Shown here: positions 6,688-58,712 of the stretch, piece after piece
Position numbering within the stretch: the first letter of the stretch is position 1
Layout of the letters: the number at the start of each line of letters is the position of its first letter
Source: Clostridiales bacterium
GTDB taxonomy: Bacteria; Bacillota; Clostridia; Monoglobales; WRBX01
DNA length: 64,000 nucleotides
NCBI GenBank assembly: GCA_031261985.1
Contig: JAISIR010000003.1
Span: 26,924-90,923 of the forward strand
Direction: 5' to 3'
The notes under the pieces: generated by a model
Seen by the model: only the letters and a program-made list of their open reading frames with translations
Told to the model about the DNA's origin: nothing
Databases searched by the model: none
Program-made: the position numbers and the translations under genes

Positions 6688-6763
6688 GGTCCATTAGCTC
6701 AGTTGGTAGAGCACTTGACTTTTAATCAAGGTGTCCCGCGTTCGAATCGCGGATGGATCACCA
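6688..6763 (+). tRNA. tRNA-Lys (anticodon UUU)
   Basis: Cloverleaf readable by eye: acceptor GGTCCAT/ATGGATC, anticodon loop CTTTTAA, T-arm GCGTTCGAATCGC, encoded CCA. Confidence 0.9.
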
Positions 6764-6908
6764 AAACTTTGCCTGCGGCAAAGAGATAAAAGATAAGAAT
6801 GAAAAGTTAAAAGTTGTTGAGGAAGTTTTGCTATCGCAAAACAATTAAAGGCAAAGTTTTGTACTTTTATCCTTTCACTTTTCATTTTTCTCTTTTCACT
6901 AAATCCTT
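6764..6908 (+). repeat. Structured tRNA trailer repeat (partner at 42262-42421)
   Basis: Begins right after CCA: AAAACTTTGCCTGCGGCAAAGAGATAAAAGATAAGAATGAAAAGT...GGCAAAGTTTTGTACTTTT. Near-identical to the trailer of tRNA(CAU). Confidence 0.85.
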
Positions 6909-6934
6909 TCCTTGCTACTTCGCAAGGATTTTTT
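6909..6934 (+). terminator. Intrinsic terminator of the tRNA-Lys unit
   Basis: TCCTTGC / GCAAGGA stem followed by TTTTTT. Confidence 0.7.
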
Positions 6935-8993: not shown

Positions 8994-9623
8994 ATGACAA
9001 ATTATTATGATCCAAACTGTGCAGAGGCATTGCTTGGTTTATCTACAAACGCTAATGTAACTAAACGCTGCACAGGAAAGTGTGGTGCAAGTGGCGCAGG
9101 CTGTTCTTGCTCATGCTGTTGTAGAGGTCCCGCGGGTCCTCAAGGCCCTATGGGTCCGGCTGGTATAGCAGGTCCTCAAGGCCCAACAGGCGCACAAGGC
9201 CCAATAGGTGCAACGGGCGCAACTGGCCCAATGGGTCCTCAGGGATTACAAGGCCCAGCAGGCGCAAGCGGCGCAACTGGCCCAACAGGACCCCAAGGTA
9301 TTCAAGGACCTCAGGGTGCAGCTGGAGCAACTGGACCTACAGGAGCAACAGGCGCGACTGGTGCAACAGGCGCGACGGGTGCAACAGGTGCAACTGGCGC
9401 AACAGGAGCGACGGGTGCAACAGGCCCAACTGGAGCAACTGGAGCAACGGGAGCGACAGGTGCAACTGGAGCAACAGGCCCAACCGGCCCAACCGGCCCT
9501 GCCGCTACACCTGCAGCTGATGTTGCCGATATTGCCAACCCATCAGAGGCTACAGCCCAGGAAAATGCTACTACCATCAATAGTATTCTAGCCGCTCTTA
9601 GAGCTGCTGGCTTGATGTCATAG
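8994..9623 (+). CDS. Collagen-like (Gly-X-Thr) repeat protein, BclA-like
   Basis: About 125 uninterrupted G-X-Y triplets (GPQ, GPT, GAT). Cys-rich segment '[18 protein letters not shown]' before the repeat and a short C-terminal tail. Confidence 0.75.
9340..9478 (+). repeat. Tandem 9-bp (GAT-triplet) repeat inside the collagen-like gene
   Basis: Runs of GGNGCNACN encoding (GAT)n. Likely length-variable. Confidence 0.8.
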
Positions 9624-37065: not shown

Positions 37066-38616
37066 TTAAGACTCTTCGTCATCGTCAACTTCATCGAAAA
37101 TGATATTAGAATTCCCTATTAAATAATCGACGCCTTCTAATCTTTCTTTCCATTTTTGTTTATTTTCTTCGCATAATTCATCATATAACACATCGACAGC
37201 ATCAGATAAATACTCACATCCATTTTTATTATCAAATATTTCGCTTATATAAGTCCCAATATTCGCACGGTCAAAATCTAATTCTTGAAAAACATTTAAA
37301 AATTCATGTTCAGGGTGTTTTTGCCCATATTTTAACAGCCAAAAGATAAGTTCTTTTTTCGATTGTTTTATTTGTAAAAATATATTATATAGTTTTTTGG
37401 ATTTTTCGCCTCTAAATACAAGACAAGCTGTTGATTCGCTTTCTAATTCGTATGCGTAAATATTAAGTTCTGAACACAAACTATACACTAGATTATAATA
37501 CGAAAAAGCTATTTTGCCCAAAGCAGTACCAAAAGCTTTTTTAATATTCTCAGAATATTCTTCTTTATTCCCACCACCTATTTTTTCTAATAATTTAAGT
37601 TCTTTGTTTATATCATCCTGTGTGCTAAATCTGGAATATCGTGCGTCATTATAGAATTGCAGCAATACGTCAAACAGGATGTTTTCATTATCCTTAAAAT
37701 CATTTTCTGCTATTTTATTTATATAATCACGAAGTCCTGTGTGATTGTGACTCATAAGCAGTCTTCTTATTCGATCTTGCTCGCTTCTTAAATCTTTGTT
37801 TTTATAATACATTAGCTCAATTATTATTTTTTGTAATCTTTCTACTCCTTGAGCTGCGAAATACAAAGCCAAAAATGGATACTCGCATAGGTATTCTTTG
37901 TTTTGAAACAAACTTTTATCATCGGGATGGAAAAATTTAATTTTACTTATCTCTTCTATTGATTTCCAAATCATTGCTCCAGAAATTTGCAACTCCTTTC
38001 TTAAAGCAAAATTCATTTCCGATAGATCTCTATCTAAATCAACTTCTATTTTTTCATCAAAATGTTCATTTTCTTCATGAGTGTAACTACCAATACTAAT
38101 TGCATAACTTAATTTTTTTGTTGCTTCTTCAAAAACAAAATTTTCTTCTTCACCGTCGCATTCATTGTGGAAAGCTGTTATTAAGTTTTCTTTTACAGAA
38201 CAAAGAGGTATCAAATTCTTCCAAAACTGTTTCCTTTCATCTTTAGACAACATATCAACCCTTGCCATTCCTTTGTAAGCAACTAGTTTTTTATTCAAAA
38301 TGTCGTCAATTACTTTCGCTGCTTTTTCTGAAATATTTTGCAACACCCAGCAAAAAGGCCAGCCTTTTAATCCGCCCCAAGATATCGGTTGAAAATCAAT
38401 GGTGCATAAATCGTCTTTAATGAGAAATGGCGATAAGTCTCCAAATACACGCCTATCAAGAATATCACCTGCTCTTATAACTATTTCATCTGAACAATTT
38501 TTCAATTCTTCAACACTCATAATTACTTCAAAAACTTCTTCGCCATACCAACCAGTGTTGAATTTTCCACTATCAAAAATAAAAGCAATATTAAGTTGTT
38601 CATTTATATTTCCCAT
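37066..38616 (-). CDS. Large Abi-like protein with a candidate Rx4H HEPN motif, island cassette D
   Basis: ATG at 38616 after GGAAGAGGTG. Central 'RIRRLLMSHNHTG' contains RLLMSH. Otherwise unrecognised. Confidence 0.45.
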   Translation of the reverse strand: MGNINEQLNIAFIFDSGKFNTGWYGEEVFEVIMSVEELKNCSDEIVIRAGDILDRRVFGDLSPFLIKDDLCTIDFQPISWGGLKGWPFCWVLQNISEKAAKVIDDILNKKLVAYKGMARVDMLSKDERKQFWKNLIPLCSVKENLITAFHNECDGEEENFVFEEATKKLSYAISIGSYTHEENEHFDEKIEVDLDRDLSEMNFALRKELQISGAMIWKSIEEISKIKFFHPDDKSLFQNKEYLCEYPFLALYFAAQGVERLQKIIIELMYYKNKDLRSEQDRIRRLLMSHNHTGLRDYINKIAENDFKDNENILFDVLLQFYNDARYSRFSTQDDINKELKLLEKIGGGNKEEYSENIKKAFGTALGKIAFSYYNLVYSLCSELNIYAYELESESTACLVFRGEKSKKLYNIFLQIKQSKKELIFWLLKYGQKHPEHEFLNVFQELDFDRANIGTYISEIFDNKNGCEYLSDAVDVLYDELCEENKQKWKERLEGVDYLIGNSNIIFDEVDDDEES

Positions 38617-38622
38617 TGATTT

Positions 38623-38668
38623 TCACCTCTTCCATAATTATATATAATTCGTCATACAAAGTCAATAC
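38623..38668 (-). promoter_or_regulatory. Conserved island promoter+RBS module, copy 4
   Basis: Minus strand reads TTGACTTTGTATGACGAATTATATATAATTATGGAAGAGGTGA. Confidence 0.75.
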
Positions 38669-39872
38669 AAATTATCGTGATTTTGGTATAATACACCGCA
38701 TTTTATCCCAAGCTTTCATTATGAGTAAATACACTAACGAACAAAAAGAAAAAGCGTTGGAACTTTATGCTTCTGGGGTAAGTGTTGCGAGCGTTGTTAA
38801 GGAATGCAAAATCCCGCGAAGCACGGTGTATGGGTGGATTTCAGCCGAAAATCTAAACGGCAATGACGAGCTTGCGTTCACTCCGAAAAACTTTCGCATG
38901 CTTAAAACAAAGGCGGACAAGTTGGAGCAGATTGTCGCTGTGCTTAAATCGTCTGATTGCACCCTTAACGCTCCATTACACGAAAAACTTAAAGTTATCA
39001 AAAAGCTGTATGGGCAATATAGTGTGCATATTTTATGCGAGGCGTTCTCAGTTAGCCGTGGGACTTTCTATAATTATCTACTACGCAACAAAAACGAAAA
39101 CACCACTTATGCAAAGCGGCGTGAGGTTTTTAGCAAACTCGTTAAAGATGTTCACGATGAGTTTAATCAGATTTTGGGTGCAAAGAAAATCACGGCGGTA
39201 CTAAATGAGCTAGGGCACAGGACGACTGAGAAATATGTGCGAAGCATTATGCAGGATATGGGGCTTGCGAGCATTCGGCAGGGGGCAAAAGCATTTTACC
39301 ACAAGGAACAATCAAAGGCAAAAAATCATCTAAATCAAAATTTCAAGGTGGACACCCCTAACGAGGTTTGGGTTAGCGATGTTAGTTTCTTCCATTTGCA
39401 CAAGCACACATATTACATTTGCGTGATTATCGACCTTTTCGCTCGAAAAGTTGTGAGTCATAAAGTGTCGCACAAAAACAGCACACAACTTACAAAATCA
39501 ACTTTTAAGCAAGCGTATTTAACACGAAAGCCCAAAGATGGTTTGATTTTCCATACCGATCAAGGCTCAAATTATCGCTCATTCACTTTTATGAGCTATC
39601 TAAAAGAGTTAGGCGTTACGCAATCGTTTTCGAGGGCTCATATTCCTTACGATAATTCTGTTGCGGAGGCGTTCTTTTCGTCTTTGAAGCAAGAAGATCT
39701 TTATCGCCATAAGTTCAAAACCGAAAAAGATTTCCGCAAAGCCGTCGATGAATATATTGTTTTTTATAACACCAAACGCCCACATACTTATAACAAGAAT
39801 AAAACGCCTGTTAAGGTGGAGGATGAGTTTTATAGCAATAATGAGAAGAATTCACAATAACAATATAGATGT
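38669..39872 (+). mobile_element. IS3-family insertion sequence (ends approximate)
   Basis: Contains the transposase ORF and fills exactly the gap between the copy-4 module and the stop of gene 39873-41279. Terminal inverted repeats are only weakly visible. Confidence 0.55.
38721..39860 (+). CDS. IS3-family transposase (HTH + DDE/rve), single uninterrupted ORF
   Basis: HTH region 'IPRSTVYGWI'. rve core 'VWVSDVSFF...YICVIIDLFARKVV...HTDQGSNYRS...YDNSVAEAFFSSLKQE'. Start set at ATG 38721. Confidence 0.8.
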   Translation: MSKYTNEQKEKALELYASGVSVASVVKECKIPRSTVYGWISAENLNGNDELAFTPKNFRMLKTKADKLEQIVAVLKSSDCTLNAPLHEKLKVIKKLYGQYSVHILCEAFSVSRGTFYNYLLRNKNENTTYAKRREVFSKLVKDVHDEFNQILGAKKITAVLNELGHRTTEKYVRSIMQDMGLASIRQGAKAFYHKEQSKAKNHLNQNFKVDTPNEVWVSDVSFFHLHKHTYYICVIIDLFARKVVSHKVSHKNSTQLTKSTFKQAYLTRKPKDGLIFHTDQGSNYRSFTFMSYLKELGVTQSFSRAHIPYDNSVAEAFFSSLKQEDLYRHKFKTEKDFRKAVDEYIVFYNTKRPHTYNKNKTPVKVEDEFYSNNEKNSQ

Positions 39873-42184: not shown

Positions 42185-42261
42185 GCACCTTTAGCTCAGT
42201 TGGTTAGAGCAACCGGCTCATAACCGGTTTGTCCGGGGTTCAAGTCCCTGAAGGTGCACCA
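42185..42261 (+). tRNA. tRNA with CAU anticodon (Met, or Ile2 if lysidine-modified)
   Basis: GCACCTTTAGCTCAGTTGGTTAGAGCAACCGGCTCATAACCGGTTTGTCCGGGGTTCAAGTCCCTGAAGGTGCACCA. The Ile-like body leaves the identity ambiguous. Confidence 0.85.
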
Positions 42262-42421
42262 AAACTTTGCATGCAGCAAAGAGTTAAAAGATAAGAGAGA
42301 AAAGTTAAAAGTTAAGGAAGTTTTGCTAACGCAAACAATTAAAGGCAAAGTTTTGTACTTTTCATTTTTCTCTTTTAACTTTTCACGCTTCACTAAAAAG
42401 CTAACTTCACAAATACCTTTT
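42262..42421 (+). repeat. Structured tRNA trailer repeat, copy 2
   Basis: AAAACTTTGCATGCAGCAAAGAGTTAAAAGATAAGAGAGAAAAGT...GGCAAAGTTTTGTACTTTT, matching 6764-6908. Confidence 0.85.
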
Positions 42422-42446
42422 TCCTTGCTTATAGCAAGGATTTTTT
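42422..42446 (+). terminator. Intrinsic terminator of the tRNA(CAU) unit
   Basis: TCCTTGC / GCAAGGA followed by TTTTTT, the same stem as at 6909-6934. Confidence 0.7.
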
Positions 42447-53524: not shown

Positions 53525-53602
53525 ATATTAAAAAAAGTTAAAAATTTTTTGGGGGAGCAAATCAATAAAGAATCATAAACAAAAAAATTCGAGGTGCTCT
53601 AT

Positions 53603-55324
53603 ATGCCAAAATTAAAACCAAATGACATCTTAATAAATGCAATAGCCCTAGTACTAACTGTTCTGTTGGGCATGCGCATAGGCACCGCTTTAACCGAGTT
53701 TCCGGGTAAAGATTTAATCGTAACCGCACTAAACGATGCCTTAGCCCGCCCGCAACATATAGTGCTTGGCTTACCGCAAACCTTCCAGTTTGGAGCATAC
53801 GCCTTCTTCATCTACGCAGTTACATTTTTGTATATCCAAACTAATAAAAAGAACCTTATGCAAGGTAAAGAACATGGTACAGCCGAGTGGGGCAACCATA
53901 AAGACATCGCATCTATTATAGATTCTGACGATGACAAAAACATATTGTTTACCGAGTCAGAAAAAATGAGCCTAGACACTCATAAAACTCGTAAGAACCT
54001 AAACGTTATGGTTATCGGTGGTTCAGGTAGTGGTAAAACTCGCTTCTTTGTTAAACCTAATATAATGCAGCGTAACACTAGCTATATTATAACCGACCCA
54101 AAAGGCGAGCTGTTATCATCTACCAGCGGATTATTAGCCGAGGCAGGCTACAAAATAAGGGTGTTTAACCTAATAGATATGGCACATAGCAATTGCTATA
54201 ATCCATTTGCCTATCTAAAAGAAGATAAAGACGTAATGCGCCTTATCCGCACACTTATTAAAAATACTACCCCGCCTAACGCACAAGCTAACGACCCATT
54301 TTGGGAGAAATCCGAGACCGCGTTGCTAATGGCGCTTGTGTATTACTTGTTTTACGAGGCTCCACCAGAAGAACAAAACTTTAGCATGATAATGGAGTTA
54401 TTACGTGCCGCCGAAGTCCGCGAGACCGATGAGAACTTTGAAAGTGATTTAGATAGACTGTTTAATATGCTAGAAGAGAAAGACCCTAACCACGTTGCCC
54501 TAAAGCAATACAAGGTGTTTAAACAGGCAGCTGGTCAAACGGCAAAATCTATCTTGGTAAGTGCAAGCGTGCGTTTAGCACCATTTAATATCCGCGATAT
54601 TGGCGCACTAACCATCGACGATAATATCGATCTAGATAAAATTGGCGACGAAAAAACTGTTTTATATGCCGTTATCCCCGATAGTCACGATACTTACAAC
54701 TTTATAGTAGCCATGATGTATAGCCAAGTTTTCGAGTCACTATTCTATAAGGCAGACTTTGAATATGGCGGTAGGCTGCCAGTGCATGTGCGCTTCCTAC
54801 TAGACGAGTTTGCTAACATAGGTCAAATCCCCGATTTCGAGAAGATGGTTGCTACTATCCGAAGCCGCGAGATTTCTACTAGCATAATCATCCAGAACTT
54901 AGCTCAGCTTAAAACAATGTATAAAGATAGTTGGGAGAGTATAACCGGTAACTGCGATAGCACACTTTTCTTGGGCGGTCAAGAGCAATCTACGCTAGAG
55001 TACATATCTAAAGCCCTTGGCAAAAAAACTATCGATACCAAAACCACTAGCAAAAATAAAGGTAAAAGCGGTGGTACAACCGTTAACTTTAACATCCATG
55101 GGCGCGAACTTATGATGCCTGACGAAATAGGACGCATGCCCGACAACACTTGCATTTTGATGATGCGTGGCATGAGGCCGTTTAAATCTCATAAAATAGT
55201 GTTAGAGAAGCATAAAATGTATGGTAAATTATTCGATGGCAAAGGCGCACAAAGTTACGACTATCGCGACCACTTCGCTACACCTTACGATAAACTCGAC
55301 CACTTCTTTAATGAGTTTAAGTAA
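53603..55324 (+). CDS. Type IV coupling protein (VirD4/TraG family)
   Basis: Two N-terminal TM helices, Walker A 'VIGGSGSGKT', Walker B 'RFLLDEFANIG'. Start at ATG 53603 after GAGGTG. Confidence 0.85.
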   Translation: MPKLKPNDILINAIALVLTVLLGMRIGTALTEFPGKDLIVTALNDALARPQHIVLGLPQTFQFGAYAFFIYAVTFLYIQTNKKNLMQGKEHGTAEWGNHKDIASIIDSDDDKNILFTESEKMSLDTHKTRKNLNVMVIGGSGSGKTRFFVKPNIMQRNTSYIITDPKGELLSSTSGLLAEAGYKIRVFNLIDMAHSNCYNPFAYLKEDKDVMRLIRTLIKNTTPPNAQANDPFWEKSETALLMALVYYLFYEAPPEEQNFSMIMELLRAAEVRETDENFESDLDRLFNMLEEKDPNHVALKQYKVFKQAAGQTAKSILVSASVRLAPFNIRDIGALTIDDNIDLDKIGDEKTVLYAVIPDSHDTYNFIVAMMYSQVFESLFYKADFEYGGRLPVHVRFLLDEFANIGQIPDFEKMVATIRSREISTSIIIQNLAQLKTMYKDSWESITGNCDSTLFLGGQEQSTLEYISKALGKKTIDTKTTSKNKGKSGGTTVNFNIHGRELMMPDEIGRMPDNTCILMMRGMRPFKSHKIVLEKHKMYGKLFDGKGAQSYDYRDHFATPYDKLDHFFNEFK

Positions 55325-55364
55325 GGGCAAGCAATAAGCCAGAAGCCAGAAATATTGTAAAATT

Positions 55365-55400
55365 CCCGTCATTGCGGGCTACGACCCGCAATCTACACGC
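55365..55400 (+). repeat. Terminal hairpin motif, left of the GIY-YIG gene
   Basis: CCCGTCATTGCGGGCTACGACCCGCAATCTACACGC. The inverted partner is at 55833-55865. Confidence 0.8.
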
Positions 55401-55434
55401 AAATAAGGAATAGCAAAATAAAGAAGGGTAATAG

Positions 55435-55749
55435 ATGGATAAAAAATATTACGTCTACTTTATGAGTAATTACGATAATTCTGTTTTATATATAGGCGTA
55501 ACAAACAATTTAGTCCGTCGAGTATCTGAACATATAGAGAAACAAAAGTTAAAAGGCAAAAAGAAACCATTCACTTTTAAATATAATTGCAATCGTTTAG
55601 TTTATTATGAAGATTTTAATAGCATAAATCAAGCCATAGAGCGCGAGAAACAATTAAAAAATTGGAAGCGTGAGTGGAAAAACGAATTAGTAGAGAGGCG
55701 TAATCCAAATTGGTCAGATTTAAGTAGAATGATAGGCGCAAAGATGTAA
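55435..55749 (+). CDS. Small GIY-YIG nuclease (UPF0213/COG2827 type)
   Basis: 'YYVYFMSNYDNSVLYIGVTNNLVRRVSEH' carries the GIY...YIG...R motifs, with a downstream 'EREKQLKNW' glutamate. 104 aa. Confidence 0.8.
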   Translation: MDKKYYVYFMSNYDNSVLYIGVTNNLVRRVSEHIEKQKLKGKKKPFTFKYNCNRLVYYEDFNSINQAIEREKQLKNWKREWKNELVERRNPNWSDLSRMIGAKM

Positions 55750-55764
55750 AACAAGGTAGAGAGT

Positions 55765-55865
55765 TCCGTCATCCTGAACTTGATTCAGGATCTACACGCA
55801 ATGTTGTAATCGACTACTATCATTCAAAACAAGCATATAGATTGCGGGTCAAGCCCGCAATGACG
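55765..55865. repeat. ~100-bp double-hairpin palindromic unit right of the GIY-YIG gene
   Basis: TCCGTCATCCTGAACTTGATTCAGGATCTACACGC, 33 nt, GCATATAGATTGCGGGTCAAGCCCGCAATGACG. Confidence 0.8.
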
Positions 55866-56003
55866 TAACCAGATTTCTGCATTCTGCATTAGAACGAAGT
55901 TCTGCGTTCTGCATTATATACATTGTCCGCAACGACACTAAACTAACCCAACATGTAAAAATTTACAATATATATTCATCAAATCAAAAAGGAGATGTTT
56001 ACC

Positions 56004-56318
56004 ATGTTAAAATTCATCAAAGAGAAATTCACAAGGCTTGCAGTTTCTACAGGTGTTATGCTTAGCATGCCAATGACAGCGTTTGCAGTTACTATGCCAG
56101 CGATTGGCAGCGCAAACATGGATTCAGCCGATAGCGTGCTTTCATTGCTTTACAAAGGCATTCAGTACATTGGCGTAATATTTGTAGTATTCGGTGCTGT
56201 TCAAGCCGGCTTAGGTTTTAAAAACGACGATGCTGAGGGCAAAGCTAAAGGTATGCGTTCAGTTATCGCTGGTGCTATTGTTTGGGGTATTGGTGCACTT
56301 GTATCAGGAGTATCCTAA
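56004..56318 (+). CDS. Maff2-like small membrane protein, paralogue 1
   Basis: Signal/TM region then 'GAVQAGLGFKNDDAEGKAKGMRSVIAGAIV'. Start at ATG 56004. Confidence 0.5.
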   Translation: MLKFIKEKFTRLAVSTGVMLSMPMTAFAVTMPAIGSANMDSADSVLSLLYKGIQYIGVIFVVFGAVQAGLGFKNDDAEGKAKGMRSVIAGAIVWGIGALVSGVS

Positions 56319-58476: not shown

Positions 58477-58521
58477 AGGGAAATGATAAATGATAAATGA
58501 TAAATGATATTTCCTGGGCAC

Positions 58522-58620
58522 CTGTTATTGTGGACTTGATTCGCAATCTACACGCTAATGAGGAATGATATCAGTCAATTTCGACGAAGTGTATAGATCC
58601 TGAGTCAAGCTCAGGATGAC
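58522..58620. repeat. Gene-less ~100-bp double-hairpin palindromic unit (MITE-like)
   Basis: ...GGACTTGATTCGCAATCTACACGC, 33 nt, GTGTATAGATCCTGAGTCAAGCTCAGGATGAC. Same architecture as 55765-55865. Confidence 0.8.
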
Positions 58621-58712
58621 TATTTATAAATTGGAGCGTAGCGAGAATTTATTTCATTCATTCTCAATTCTCAATTATTCATTATTAATTGTTTTTTAGA
58701 GGGGTGTTTAAA

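Follow-up and report, generated by a model that had tools for sequence, protein, structure and literature searches.

In a 64,000-nt stretch of contig JAISIR010000003.1 (the whole stretch analyzed, hereafter the window), a small open reading frame (ORF) for a GIY-YIG nuclease, located at 55435-55749 on the + strand and encoding 104 aa, lies between the coupling-protein gene of a type IV secretion system (T4SS) and the first of several Maff2-like genes. The gene and its surrounding repeats very probably represent a single-stranded DNA (ssDNA) endonuclease of the Ssn family and five cognate hairpins of the type called Ssn-related motifs (SRMs), equivalent to CGTC-tagged repetitive extragenic palindromes (REPs), which together form a cassette occupying two intergenic gaps of the T4SS operon. 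The pairing of such nucleases with hairpins is already published and the window locus is a new example of it; the locus is thus explained rather than mysterious, and is notable mainly for its position inside a conjugation operon. All coordinates and sequences quoted in an earlier annotation made from the sequence alone (the sequence-only reading) were found as given.

A Probable Ssn-Family Nuclease Gene

SsnA of Neisseria meningitidis is a 94-aa single-domain GIY-YIG protein assigned to CDD family cd10448 (Chenal et al., Nat Commun 2025, PMC11893778). For comparison, an orthologue was taken from a 2.17-Mb N. gonorrhoeae chromosome that is filed as a plasmid (NZ_CP119140.1; L001:1516-1797); it is 94 aa long, contains the residues Y6, Y17, and E64, and is encoded among 16 copies of the NTS hairpin repeat in 3.3 kb. 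The window protein was 44% identical to this orthologue over 90 aa by BLASTP (E=1e-24), and tblastn gave E=7e-13 in a 7.3-Gb database. Both values fall under E<1e-10, the homologue threshold of the 2025 paper, which was defined against the N. meningitidis protein and is applied here with the gonococcal orthologue in its place. The Pfam GIY-YIG domain (PF01541) covered residues 4-82 of the 104-aa protein (E=3.1e-17), with no second domain. Residues Y8, Y19, and E71 aligned to the SsnA catalytic residues Y6, Y17, and E64 and were invariant in a 33-sequence alignment, and all 19 invariant columns of that alignment, including Y8, Y19, R70, and E71, were intact in the window protein. The ATG at 55435 is preceded by a Shine-Dalgarno-like AAGAAGGG and agrees with the N-termini of homologues. 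The database gene call (P0001, 95 aa) begins instead at Met10, which would remove the GIY motif (55435-55462). From its sequence, the ORF is predicted to encode a ∼100-aa single-domain, site-specific ssDNA endonuclease of the Ssn family.

The sequence-only reading had labeled the protein UPF0213/COG2827-type, a family for which no role in mobility is established. The UPF0213 protein BH0048 is indeed the best solved-structure match by sequence, and both are small stand-alone GIY-YIG proteins, yet that match is marginal (E=0.014) beside the one to the SsnA orthologue (E=1e-24, 44% identity), so the label is very probably wrong. A housekeeping repair nuclease of the UPF0213/YhbQ type, next to which the repeats would lie by coincidence, would also have to contend with flanking repeats whose number, in the window as in the relatives, greatly exceeds chance, and this interpretation deserves next to no credence. 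Nor is the family of unknown role, as the Ssn proteins and their hairpin association were characterized in 2025, the activity being strand-specific cleavage of ssDNA beside the hairpin and not transposition (PMC11893778).

Searches of other collections were largely negative. No NCBIfam family reached its cut-off for the window protein (TIGR01453 was weak, E=0.0057), nothing rose above noise in PHROGs (phrog_5123, E=5.8e-4), and none of the PADLOC defence models matched; the PADLOC and PHROGs results thus indicate neither a catalogued defence gene nor a phage homing endonuclease. A tblastn search of a phage database returned no homologue, IMG/VR yielded one weak partial match, and no second GIY-YIG paralogue was present in the window. 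The GIY-YIG homing endonucleases I-TevI and I-BmoI share the nuclease domain and the selfish-looking, free-standing gene between host genes, but the window protein carries no DNA-binding domain or linker, its sequence match to them is weak, and the target of the Ssn family is an ssDNA hairpin rather than a double-stranded homing site.

Five Hairpins Around and Downstream of the Gene

Five copies of a motif built as CGTC-AT[stem]-loop-[stem]AT-C-TACACGC, all sharing the flanks CGTCAT...ATCTAYAYGC, were identified in the window; all are intergenic, and all lie within 55.3-58.7 kb, or 3.3 kb of the 64-kb window. The gene is preceded by a hairpin of stem type 1 (CGTC AT-TGCGGG CTACGA CCCGCA-AT C TACACGC; 55367-55400, + strand; -8.4 kcal/mol, z -3.29), 35 nt upstream of the start codon. 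It is followed, 18 nt after the stop codon, by a hairpin of stem type 2 (CGTC AT-CCTGAA CTTGA TTCAGG-AT C TACACGC; 55767-55799, + strand; z -2.51) and, 84 nt downstream, by a type-1 hairpin (CGTCATTGCGGGCTTGACCCGCAATCTATATGC; 55833-55865, - strand; -9.1 kcal/mol, z -3.69) that is the inverted partner of 55367-55400. The remaining two copies are a decayed, type-1-like SRM (TGTTATTGTGGACTTGATTCGCAATCTACACGC; 58523-58555, + strand) with two flank mismatches, in which TGTTAT replaces CGTCAT and the stem has broken down, leaving no stable hairpin (z +0.18), and a type-2 hairpin with the stem CCTGAG (AGTCATCCTGAGCTTGACTCAGGATCTATACAC; 58589-58621, - strand; -8.0 kcal/mol, z -4.12). Hairpins of 8 bp are therefore formed by ssDNA in four of the five copies (z -2.5 to -4.1). 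The pattern GTCATN{14,30}ATCTAYAC matched three times in the window against 0.05 expected, and the flank pattern with up to three mismatches recovered the five copies and one spurious, hairpin-less site, against 0.27 and 0.18 expected.

The bracketing of the ORF by inverted hairpin ends, proposed earlier, was borne out by arms that are 100% complementary over 14 nt (55367-55380/55852-55865) and 89% complementary over 18 nt (55383-55400/55833-55850). The same holds for the sister end described at 55767-55799, which shares both flanks with the other ends and has a different, self-complementary stem. A permissive Rfam search of the region and a gathering-threshold search of the whole window returned tRNAs and noise only; the hairpins are thus not a curated RNA family.

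The presence of the gene-less, two-ended unit noted at 58522-58620 was confirmed. All 99 nt of it, the 33-nt spacer among them, align with 55767-55865 in reverse complement, and thus the same two-hairpin unit is also present directly 3′ of the ssn gene. Both copies consist of a type-1 stem, a 33-nt spacer (55800-55832 in unit A, aligning in reverse complement with 58556-58588 in unit B), and a type-2 stem, and in each the CGTC tags point outward; unit A abuts the 3′ end of the gene, and the type-1 hairpin on the 5′ side is solitary.

Outer purine/pyrimidine arms, which the sequence-only reading had included in the element, are present at both ends of this region as perfect tandem heptamers (Tandem Repeats Finder, TRF), namely AAGCCAG x2.3 on the left (55336-55351) and TTCTGCA x2.3 on the right (55875-55890). 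As an inverted-repeat pair, they are weak, with 75% complementarity over 24 nt (right side 55868-55891). Unit B is likewise bracketed by heptamers, AAATGAT x4.1 (58481-58509) and ATTCTCA x2.4 (58660-58676; TRF), and at both hairpin clusters the left and right heptamers are roughly complementary; this bracketing may be coincidental, or the hairpin units may have inserted into heptamer stems already in place. Similar paired arrays of purine and pyrimidine heptamers follow tRNA-Lys and tRNA-Met, where no SRM is nearby. Because such arrays are found elsewhere in the window without SRMs, the outer arms are probably a host intergenic feature outside the Ssn unit, and their assignment to the element was rejected.

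Association of ssn Genes and Hairpins in Relatives

A protein search returned 1324 homologues, typically 60-65% identical to the window protein, and a genome scan recovered at least 594 relatives, of which the best 80 loci, spanning >12 phyla and 388 kb, were analyzed. Under a structural definition of the hairpin (GTCAT, a stem of 7-9 bp starting from the AT, a loop of 3-9 nt, then C), these loci contained 184 hairpins compared with 7.65 in dinucleotide shuffles, a 24-fold excess. One or more hairpins were present in 51 of the 80 loci, within 400 nt of the gene in 47, and on both sides of it in 37, confirming the earlier suggestion that the nuclease and the hairpins belong together; in the published survey, SRMs were near 71% of homologues and on both sides in 42% (PMC11893778). 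The nearest upstream copy was on the + strand in 26 of 42 loci, at a median of 40 nt, which is the commonest arrangement and that of the left hairpin in the window, and the nearest downstream copy was on the - strand in 34 of 42 loci, at a median of 31.5 nt. Counted by its flanks alone, the motif had a density of 3.0 per kb at distances up to 400 nt from the gene versus 0.18 per kb beyond 800 nt, and 56% of the near copies had Watson-Crick stems of at least 7 bp.

Across the 80 loci, the stems vary freely with compensating changes and CTTGA is a frequent loop. The two stems of the window are found again among these loci, as is the Neisseria TCCCGC stem, and in nine of the loci the CCTGAA stem is again combined with the CTTGA loop. 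Two or more nearby copies were present in 40 loci, and in 14 of these the stems differed at three or more of six positions, often as alternating heterodimers, and 51 of 75 adjacent hairpin pairs were oppositely oriented. Additionally, many homologues end in the C-terminal tails IAGQARND or DCGSSPQ, which are two reading frames of the hairpin ATTGCGGGTCAAGCCCGCAATGACG, exactly the right end in the window. Tandem cassettes were found in Mesonia sediminis (L073:2433-3681), where a 423-bp unit of one hairpin and one ssn gene is repeated three times with 95-97% identity, and a further locus (L041) contained two diverged cassettes 1.8 kb apart.

Relation to NTS and CGTC-Tagged REPs

The NTS repeat, CGTCATTCCCGCGMAVGCGGGAATCYRG, is bound by SsnA only as ssDNA and only on that strand, which is cut a few nucleotides upstream of the repeat (PMC11893778). 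Ssn enzymes leave double-stranded DNA (dsDNA), RNA, and the complementary strand uncut, and SsnA does not bind RNA; its binding depends most on the C just 3′ of the stem, and its cutting on the three nucleotides 5′ of the palindrome (PMC11893778). The window locus resembles this system in its ∼100-aa single-domain GIY-YIG protein with the catalytic Tyr, Tyr, and Glu retained, in its hairpins with a CGTCAT 5′ flank, a stem starting and ending in AT, and a C after the stem followed by a pyrimidine (CGTCAT...ATCY), and in the intergenic placement of inverted repeats on both sides of the gene. It differs in having the stems TGCGGG and CCTGAA and the loop CTTGA, compared with the stem TCCCGCG and loop MAV of NTS, in having two stem classes beside one gene, and in having five copies in the 64-kb window, whereas NTS number in the hundreds per Neisseria genome. 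The host also differs, being low in GC and carrying SLH-domain and Maff2-type T4SS genes, and the cassette lies within a conjugation operon.

CGTC-tagged REPs were described as families CGTC-1 to -4, including Neisseria dRS3 and Rickettsia RPE-4/-6, with a CGTC or TGTC tag, a stem of 8-9 bp starting with AT, a loop of 4-5 nt, and a short unpaired tail; they form dimers of oppositely oriented units, often heterodimers, in which 20-100 bp separate the two units (Di Nocera et al., BMC Genomics 2013, PMC3733652). They were recorded in Proteobacteria, Chlorobi, Bacteroidetes, Spirochaetes, and Thermotogae and were defined by high copy number, and a dedicated enzyme was not found in that study (PMC3733652). 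The window hairpins share the tag, the AT-starting stem, the loop length, and the short tail, judging by sequence and ssDNA folds, and the two 99-nt units pair a type-1 with a type-2 stem across a 33-nt spacer. In contrast, the window tail is CTACACGC where the consensus is CCA, and the copy number is known here from the 64-kb window alone (five copies in 3.3 kb).

Predicted Activity and Points Against It

By analogy with the four Ssn proteins that have been characterized biochemically (PMC11893778), the window enzyme would act on DNA in the single-stranded state, in which the strand reading CGTC-AT...AT-C is expected to fold into an 8-bp hairpin. The enzyme would bind the folded hairpin and hydrolyze that strand at a site lying a few nucleotides to the 5′ side of the CGTC tag, sparing dsDNA, RNA, and the opposite strand. 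The + copies would direct top-strand nicks immediately to the left of 55367 and 55767 and, provided that the decayed copy still functions, of 58523, and the - copies would direct bottom-strand nicks just right of 55865 and 58621. With three + and two - copies, either strand of the region would be cleavable when single-stranded in a cell that makes the enzyme, and the sources of ssDNA here would be replication and conjugative transfer. The activity of the window protein, its cut positions, and its acceptance of both stems are thus all predictions of the analogy.

Several observations weigh against the assignment of an Ssn enzyme with five cognate hairpins. The window protein has a 5-aa insertion, KQKLK, that is unique in the 33-sequence alignment, and is missing the C-terminal helix of its closest relatives. 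Furthermore, the published SRM string, HGTCWYN(0-2)YYVSBRHN(0-5)WNVSBRGN(0-2)RNCYNB, had no matches in the window, where the stems begin TG or CC...A and the string demands a pyrimidine-rich pattern. As printed, however, the same string matched only 9 of the 16 NTS that served as a Neisseria control, missing 7, and only 26 of the 184 structural hairpins of relatives, missing 158; it is thus a narrow search tool rather than a definition, and its failure in the window is not disqualifying. The remaining objection concerns the two stems around one gene. SsnA is inactive once the stem sequence is changed with the structure kept (PMC11893778), and so one of the two stem types here may not be a substrate of the enzyme. 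Either this clade reads flanks, loop, and shape, or one stem class belongs to another enzyme.

Insertion Into the T4SS Operon

To place the cassette relative to its surroundings, the operon was compared with 80 metagenomic loci encoding coupling proteins 46-76% identical (aa) to that of the window. No ssn homologue was present in any of the 80, and their 11 hairpins in 737 kb are at chance level. In the closest relative (76% aa identity), a gap of 16 nt separates the stop codon of the coupling-protein gene from a Maff2-like gene, compared with 670 nt in the window, and in the relatives at 61% identity the gap is ∼170-190 nt. In relatives, genes homologous to the Maff2-like ones directly follow the coupling protein. 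The two long intergenic gaps of the window operon are exactly the two that contain hairpins. Since 0 of 80 related loci carry it, the ssn block is, as judged by these comparisons, an insertion relative to all related T4SS loci available, in agreement with the earlier proposal that it interrupts the operon; at these divergences, the boundaries of the insertion are not fixed to the nucleotide.

A search for insertion polymorphism, which the sequence-only reading had suggested, produced no pair of empty and filled sites. The coupling protein was found on one other assembly, identical in sequence (L163, Logan SRR14710920), which is independent and ends at window position 55397, inside the 3′ flank of the left hairpin (...ATCTACA). 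A break at this point fits what a repeat or inverted repeat does to short-read assemblers, and is no proof of one. Exact look-ups of the 95-aa product as called by JGI and of the Maff2-like protein found neither on record, and near a homologue on a Rhizobium plasmid synteny was unconserved on one side, making that comparison uninformative. No target-site duplication was visible flanking either unit.

The insertion bears on the possibility that the hairpin-ssn-hairpin cassette is an autonomous mobile element mobilized by Ssn, through IS200/IS605- or RAYT-like chemistry or homing-type repair, with the 99-nt units as derivatives resembling REPINs or miniature inverted-repeat transposable elements (MITEs). 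Such an element would extend the Ssn-hairpin assignment and is compatible with it. It would account for a block that is inserted relative to all 80 related T4SS loci, for inverted-end architecture kept across phyla, for proteins 50-65% identical in >12 phyla, and for the tandem or paralogous cassettes of L073 (a 423-bp unit in three copies) and L041 (two copies); in addition, the two 99-nt units share their spacer sequence and are thus copies of one unit rather than independent hairpins. The likeness to insertion sequences and to REPs with their REP-associated tyrosine transposases (RAYTs) has also been raised as a hypothesis in the literature (PMC11893778). Against it, GIY-YIG enzymes hydrolyze DNA without a covalent intermediate, and none is known to have strand-transfer activity. 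The cuts directed by the end hairpins would also fall on opposite strands, whereas those of IS200/IS605 are made on the same strand, and both a target-site duplication and an empty/filled-site pair are missing. The role demonstrated in Neisseria, moreover, is restriction of transforming ssDNA (PMC11893778). On balance, an autonomous mobile element is a possible but rather unlikely addition.

The earlier comparison of the layout with MITEs or REP/RAYT pairs therefore stands in part, in that inverted ends and a gene-less derivative are present; no target-site duplication is visible, and mobility is a hypothesis that the 2025 paper had already put forward. As in REP/REPIN-RAYT systems, the gene is flanked by inverted copies of a short hairpin, which is also found in inverted dimers that lack a gene, and the RAYT enzyme, like the Ssn family, recognizes its hairpin in ssDNA. 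The window enzyme is instead a hydrolytic GIY-YIG nuclease, not an IS200/IS605-like Y1 HUH tyrosine transposase, the tag is CGTC rather than GTAG, and mobility is hypothetical here. Likewise, the locus has the inverted ends of a MITE or insertion sequence, but neither a flanking direct repeat nor a known transposase family.

Because conjugation delivers ssDNA, an Ssn encoded by a conjugative element would cleave incoming T-strands that carry the hairpins, and the cassette might on this basis be cargo that excludes a second copy or competitors while the resident dsDNA remains immune. The ssn gene has the same orientation as the T4SS operon around it, with the coupling-protein gene on one side and the Maff2-like genes on the other; the hairpins, which do not resemble typical terminators, occur in both orientations so that either transferred strand would be cleavable; and the Ssn family cuts ssDNA only, with uptake of NTS-bearing DNA lowered 5-fold in Neisseria, where SsnA restricts transforming ssDNA (PMC11893778). 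The absence of ssn from all 80 related T4SS loci, however, shows that conjugation systems of this kind do not carry the gene as a conserved module. Among 33 PLSDB records with homologues, only 1 was typed as conjugative, PADLOC defence models did not match, no relaxase or origin of transfer (oriT) was identified in the window, and conjugation is unmentioned in the 2025 Ssn paper (PMC11893778). A role as exclusion cargo is accordingly considered improbable.

The hairpins might instead act as RNA, as terminators, attenuators, or mRNA stabilizers of the T4SS operon, with the nuclease gene an unrelated neighbor. All five copies are intergenic, REPs have been proposed as RNA elements, and one copy (58597-58617) scored as terminator-like. 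Copies are found on both strands, however, and the hairpins track ssn in 80 unrelated contexts while being absent from the 80 related T4SS loci; SsnA does not bind RNA, and no Rfam family matches. A terminator reading in particular was rejected, as a T-rich tail is present in one of the five copies and terminator-like sites are fewer than in shuffles. Action at the RNA level is thus very unlikely.

Genomic Setting and Other Repeats

The 5′ neighbor of ssn is the T4SS coupling-protein gene (VirD4/TraG-like; 53594-55324, + strand), with Pfam matches to T4SS-DNA_transf (E=5.9e-75) and TraG-D_C (E=3.4e-39). The 3′ neighbor (55995-56318, + strand) is the first of five genes in the ORF list for small Maff2-like membrane proteins, which are followed by a VirB6-like ORF and a VirB4-type ATPase. 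The Maff2-like label given earlier is weak, with one paralogue of the first gene matching the family at E=8.5e-4, under the Pfam cut-off. The remainder of the window contains chromosomal genes, including cysS, aminotransferases, an SLH-domain protein, four tRNAs, and an IS3-family transposase, and the T4SS cluster thus probably belongs to a conjugative element that has integrated into a genome of low GC content, likely one of the Bacillota. The IS3-family transposase gene (38616-39860), with rve and helix-turn-helix domains, lies ∼11 kb upstream of the T4SS cluster. A megablast search of the 7.5-kb region against plasmids gave no match.

The window had also been described as saturated with hairpin repeats that the nuclease might spread. 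Perfect hairpins of at least 7 bp numbered 63, compared with 33.6 ± 5.9 in shuffles, only a ∼2-fold excess, and apart from four SRM copies these belong to other repeat families or are ordinary stem-loops; the SRM itself is present in five copies only. The other hairpins lack the CGTC...ATC flanks, and so the claim that this enzyme spreads them fails.

Among the other repeats, an element of ∼170 nt is located directly 3′ of both tRNA-Lys (6688-6763) and tRNA-Met (42185-42261), at 6764-6930 and 42262-42440. In each copy, a small hairpin is followed by an array of purine-rich heptamers (x4-5), the hairpin GTTTTGCTAnCGCAAAAC occupies the center, and after it come the complementary array of pyrimidine heptamers and a strong terminator-like hairpin with a T-run; the element had no Rfam match. 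Two inverted-repeat arms of 181 nt, 84% complementary (41666-41846/48466-48646), surround a 6.6-kb block that holds tRNA-Gly, tRNA-Met, cysS, two aminotransferases, and a BspA-type leucine-rich repeat protein. Each arm comprises about two 125-nt units full of short hairpins that are not SRMs; the left arm abuts tRNA-Cys, and a related hairpin is present at 1545-1565. Finally, tandem repeats of 9/18/27 nt (GGAGCAACA-type) form a long array at 9169-9499 that probably encodes a collagen-like Gly-X-Y repeat protein.

Implications for the Ssn Family

The hairpins of the Ssn family are more diverse than the published string, with the flanks, the AT-closed stem, and often the CTTGA loop being what is kept, and repeat counts based on that string are thus underestimates. 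The presence of two stem classes around one gene bears on how these enzymes read their sites, and hence on their proposed use as programmable ssDNA cutters. Insertion of the cassette in a conjugative operon offers circumstantial support for mobility and links the family to the other major route of ssDNA entry.

It is unlikely that the cassette mobilizes itself, with the 99-nt units as non-autonomous copies, or that its function is coupled to conjugative ssDNA. If this were true, nicks 5′ of the outward-facing hairpins, made on whichever strand is transferred or displaced, would favor copying into targets that carry hairpins, and Ssn would be the long-missing mobilizing enzyme of the CGTC-tagged REP superfamily; in a weaker variant, the Ssn of the element would be a single-strand-specific entry-exclusion nuclease acting against incoming copies.

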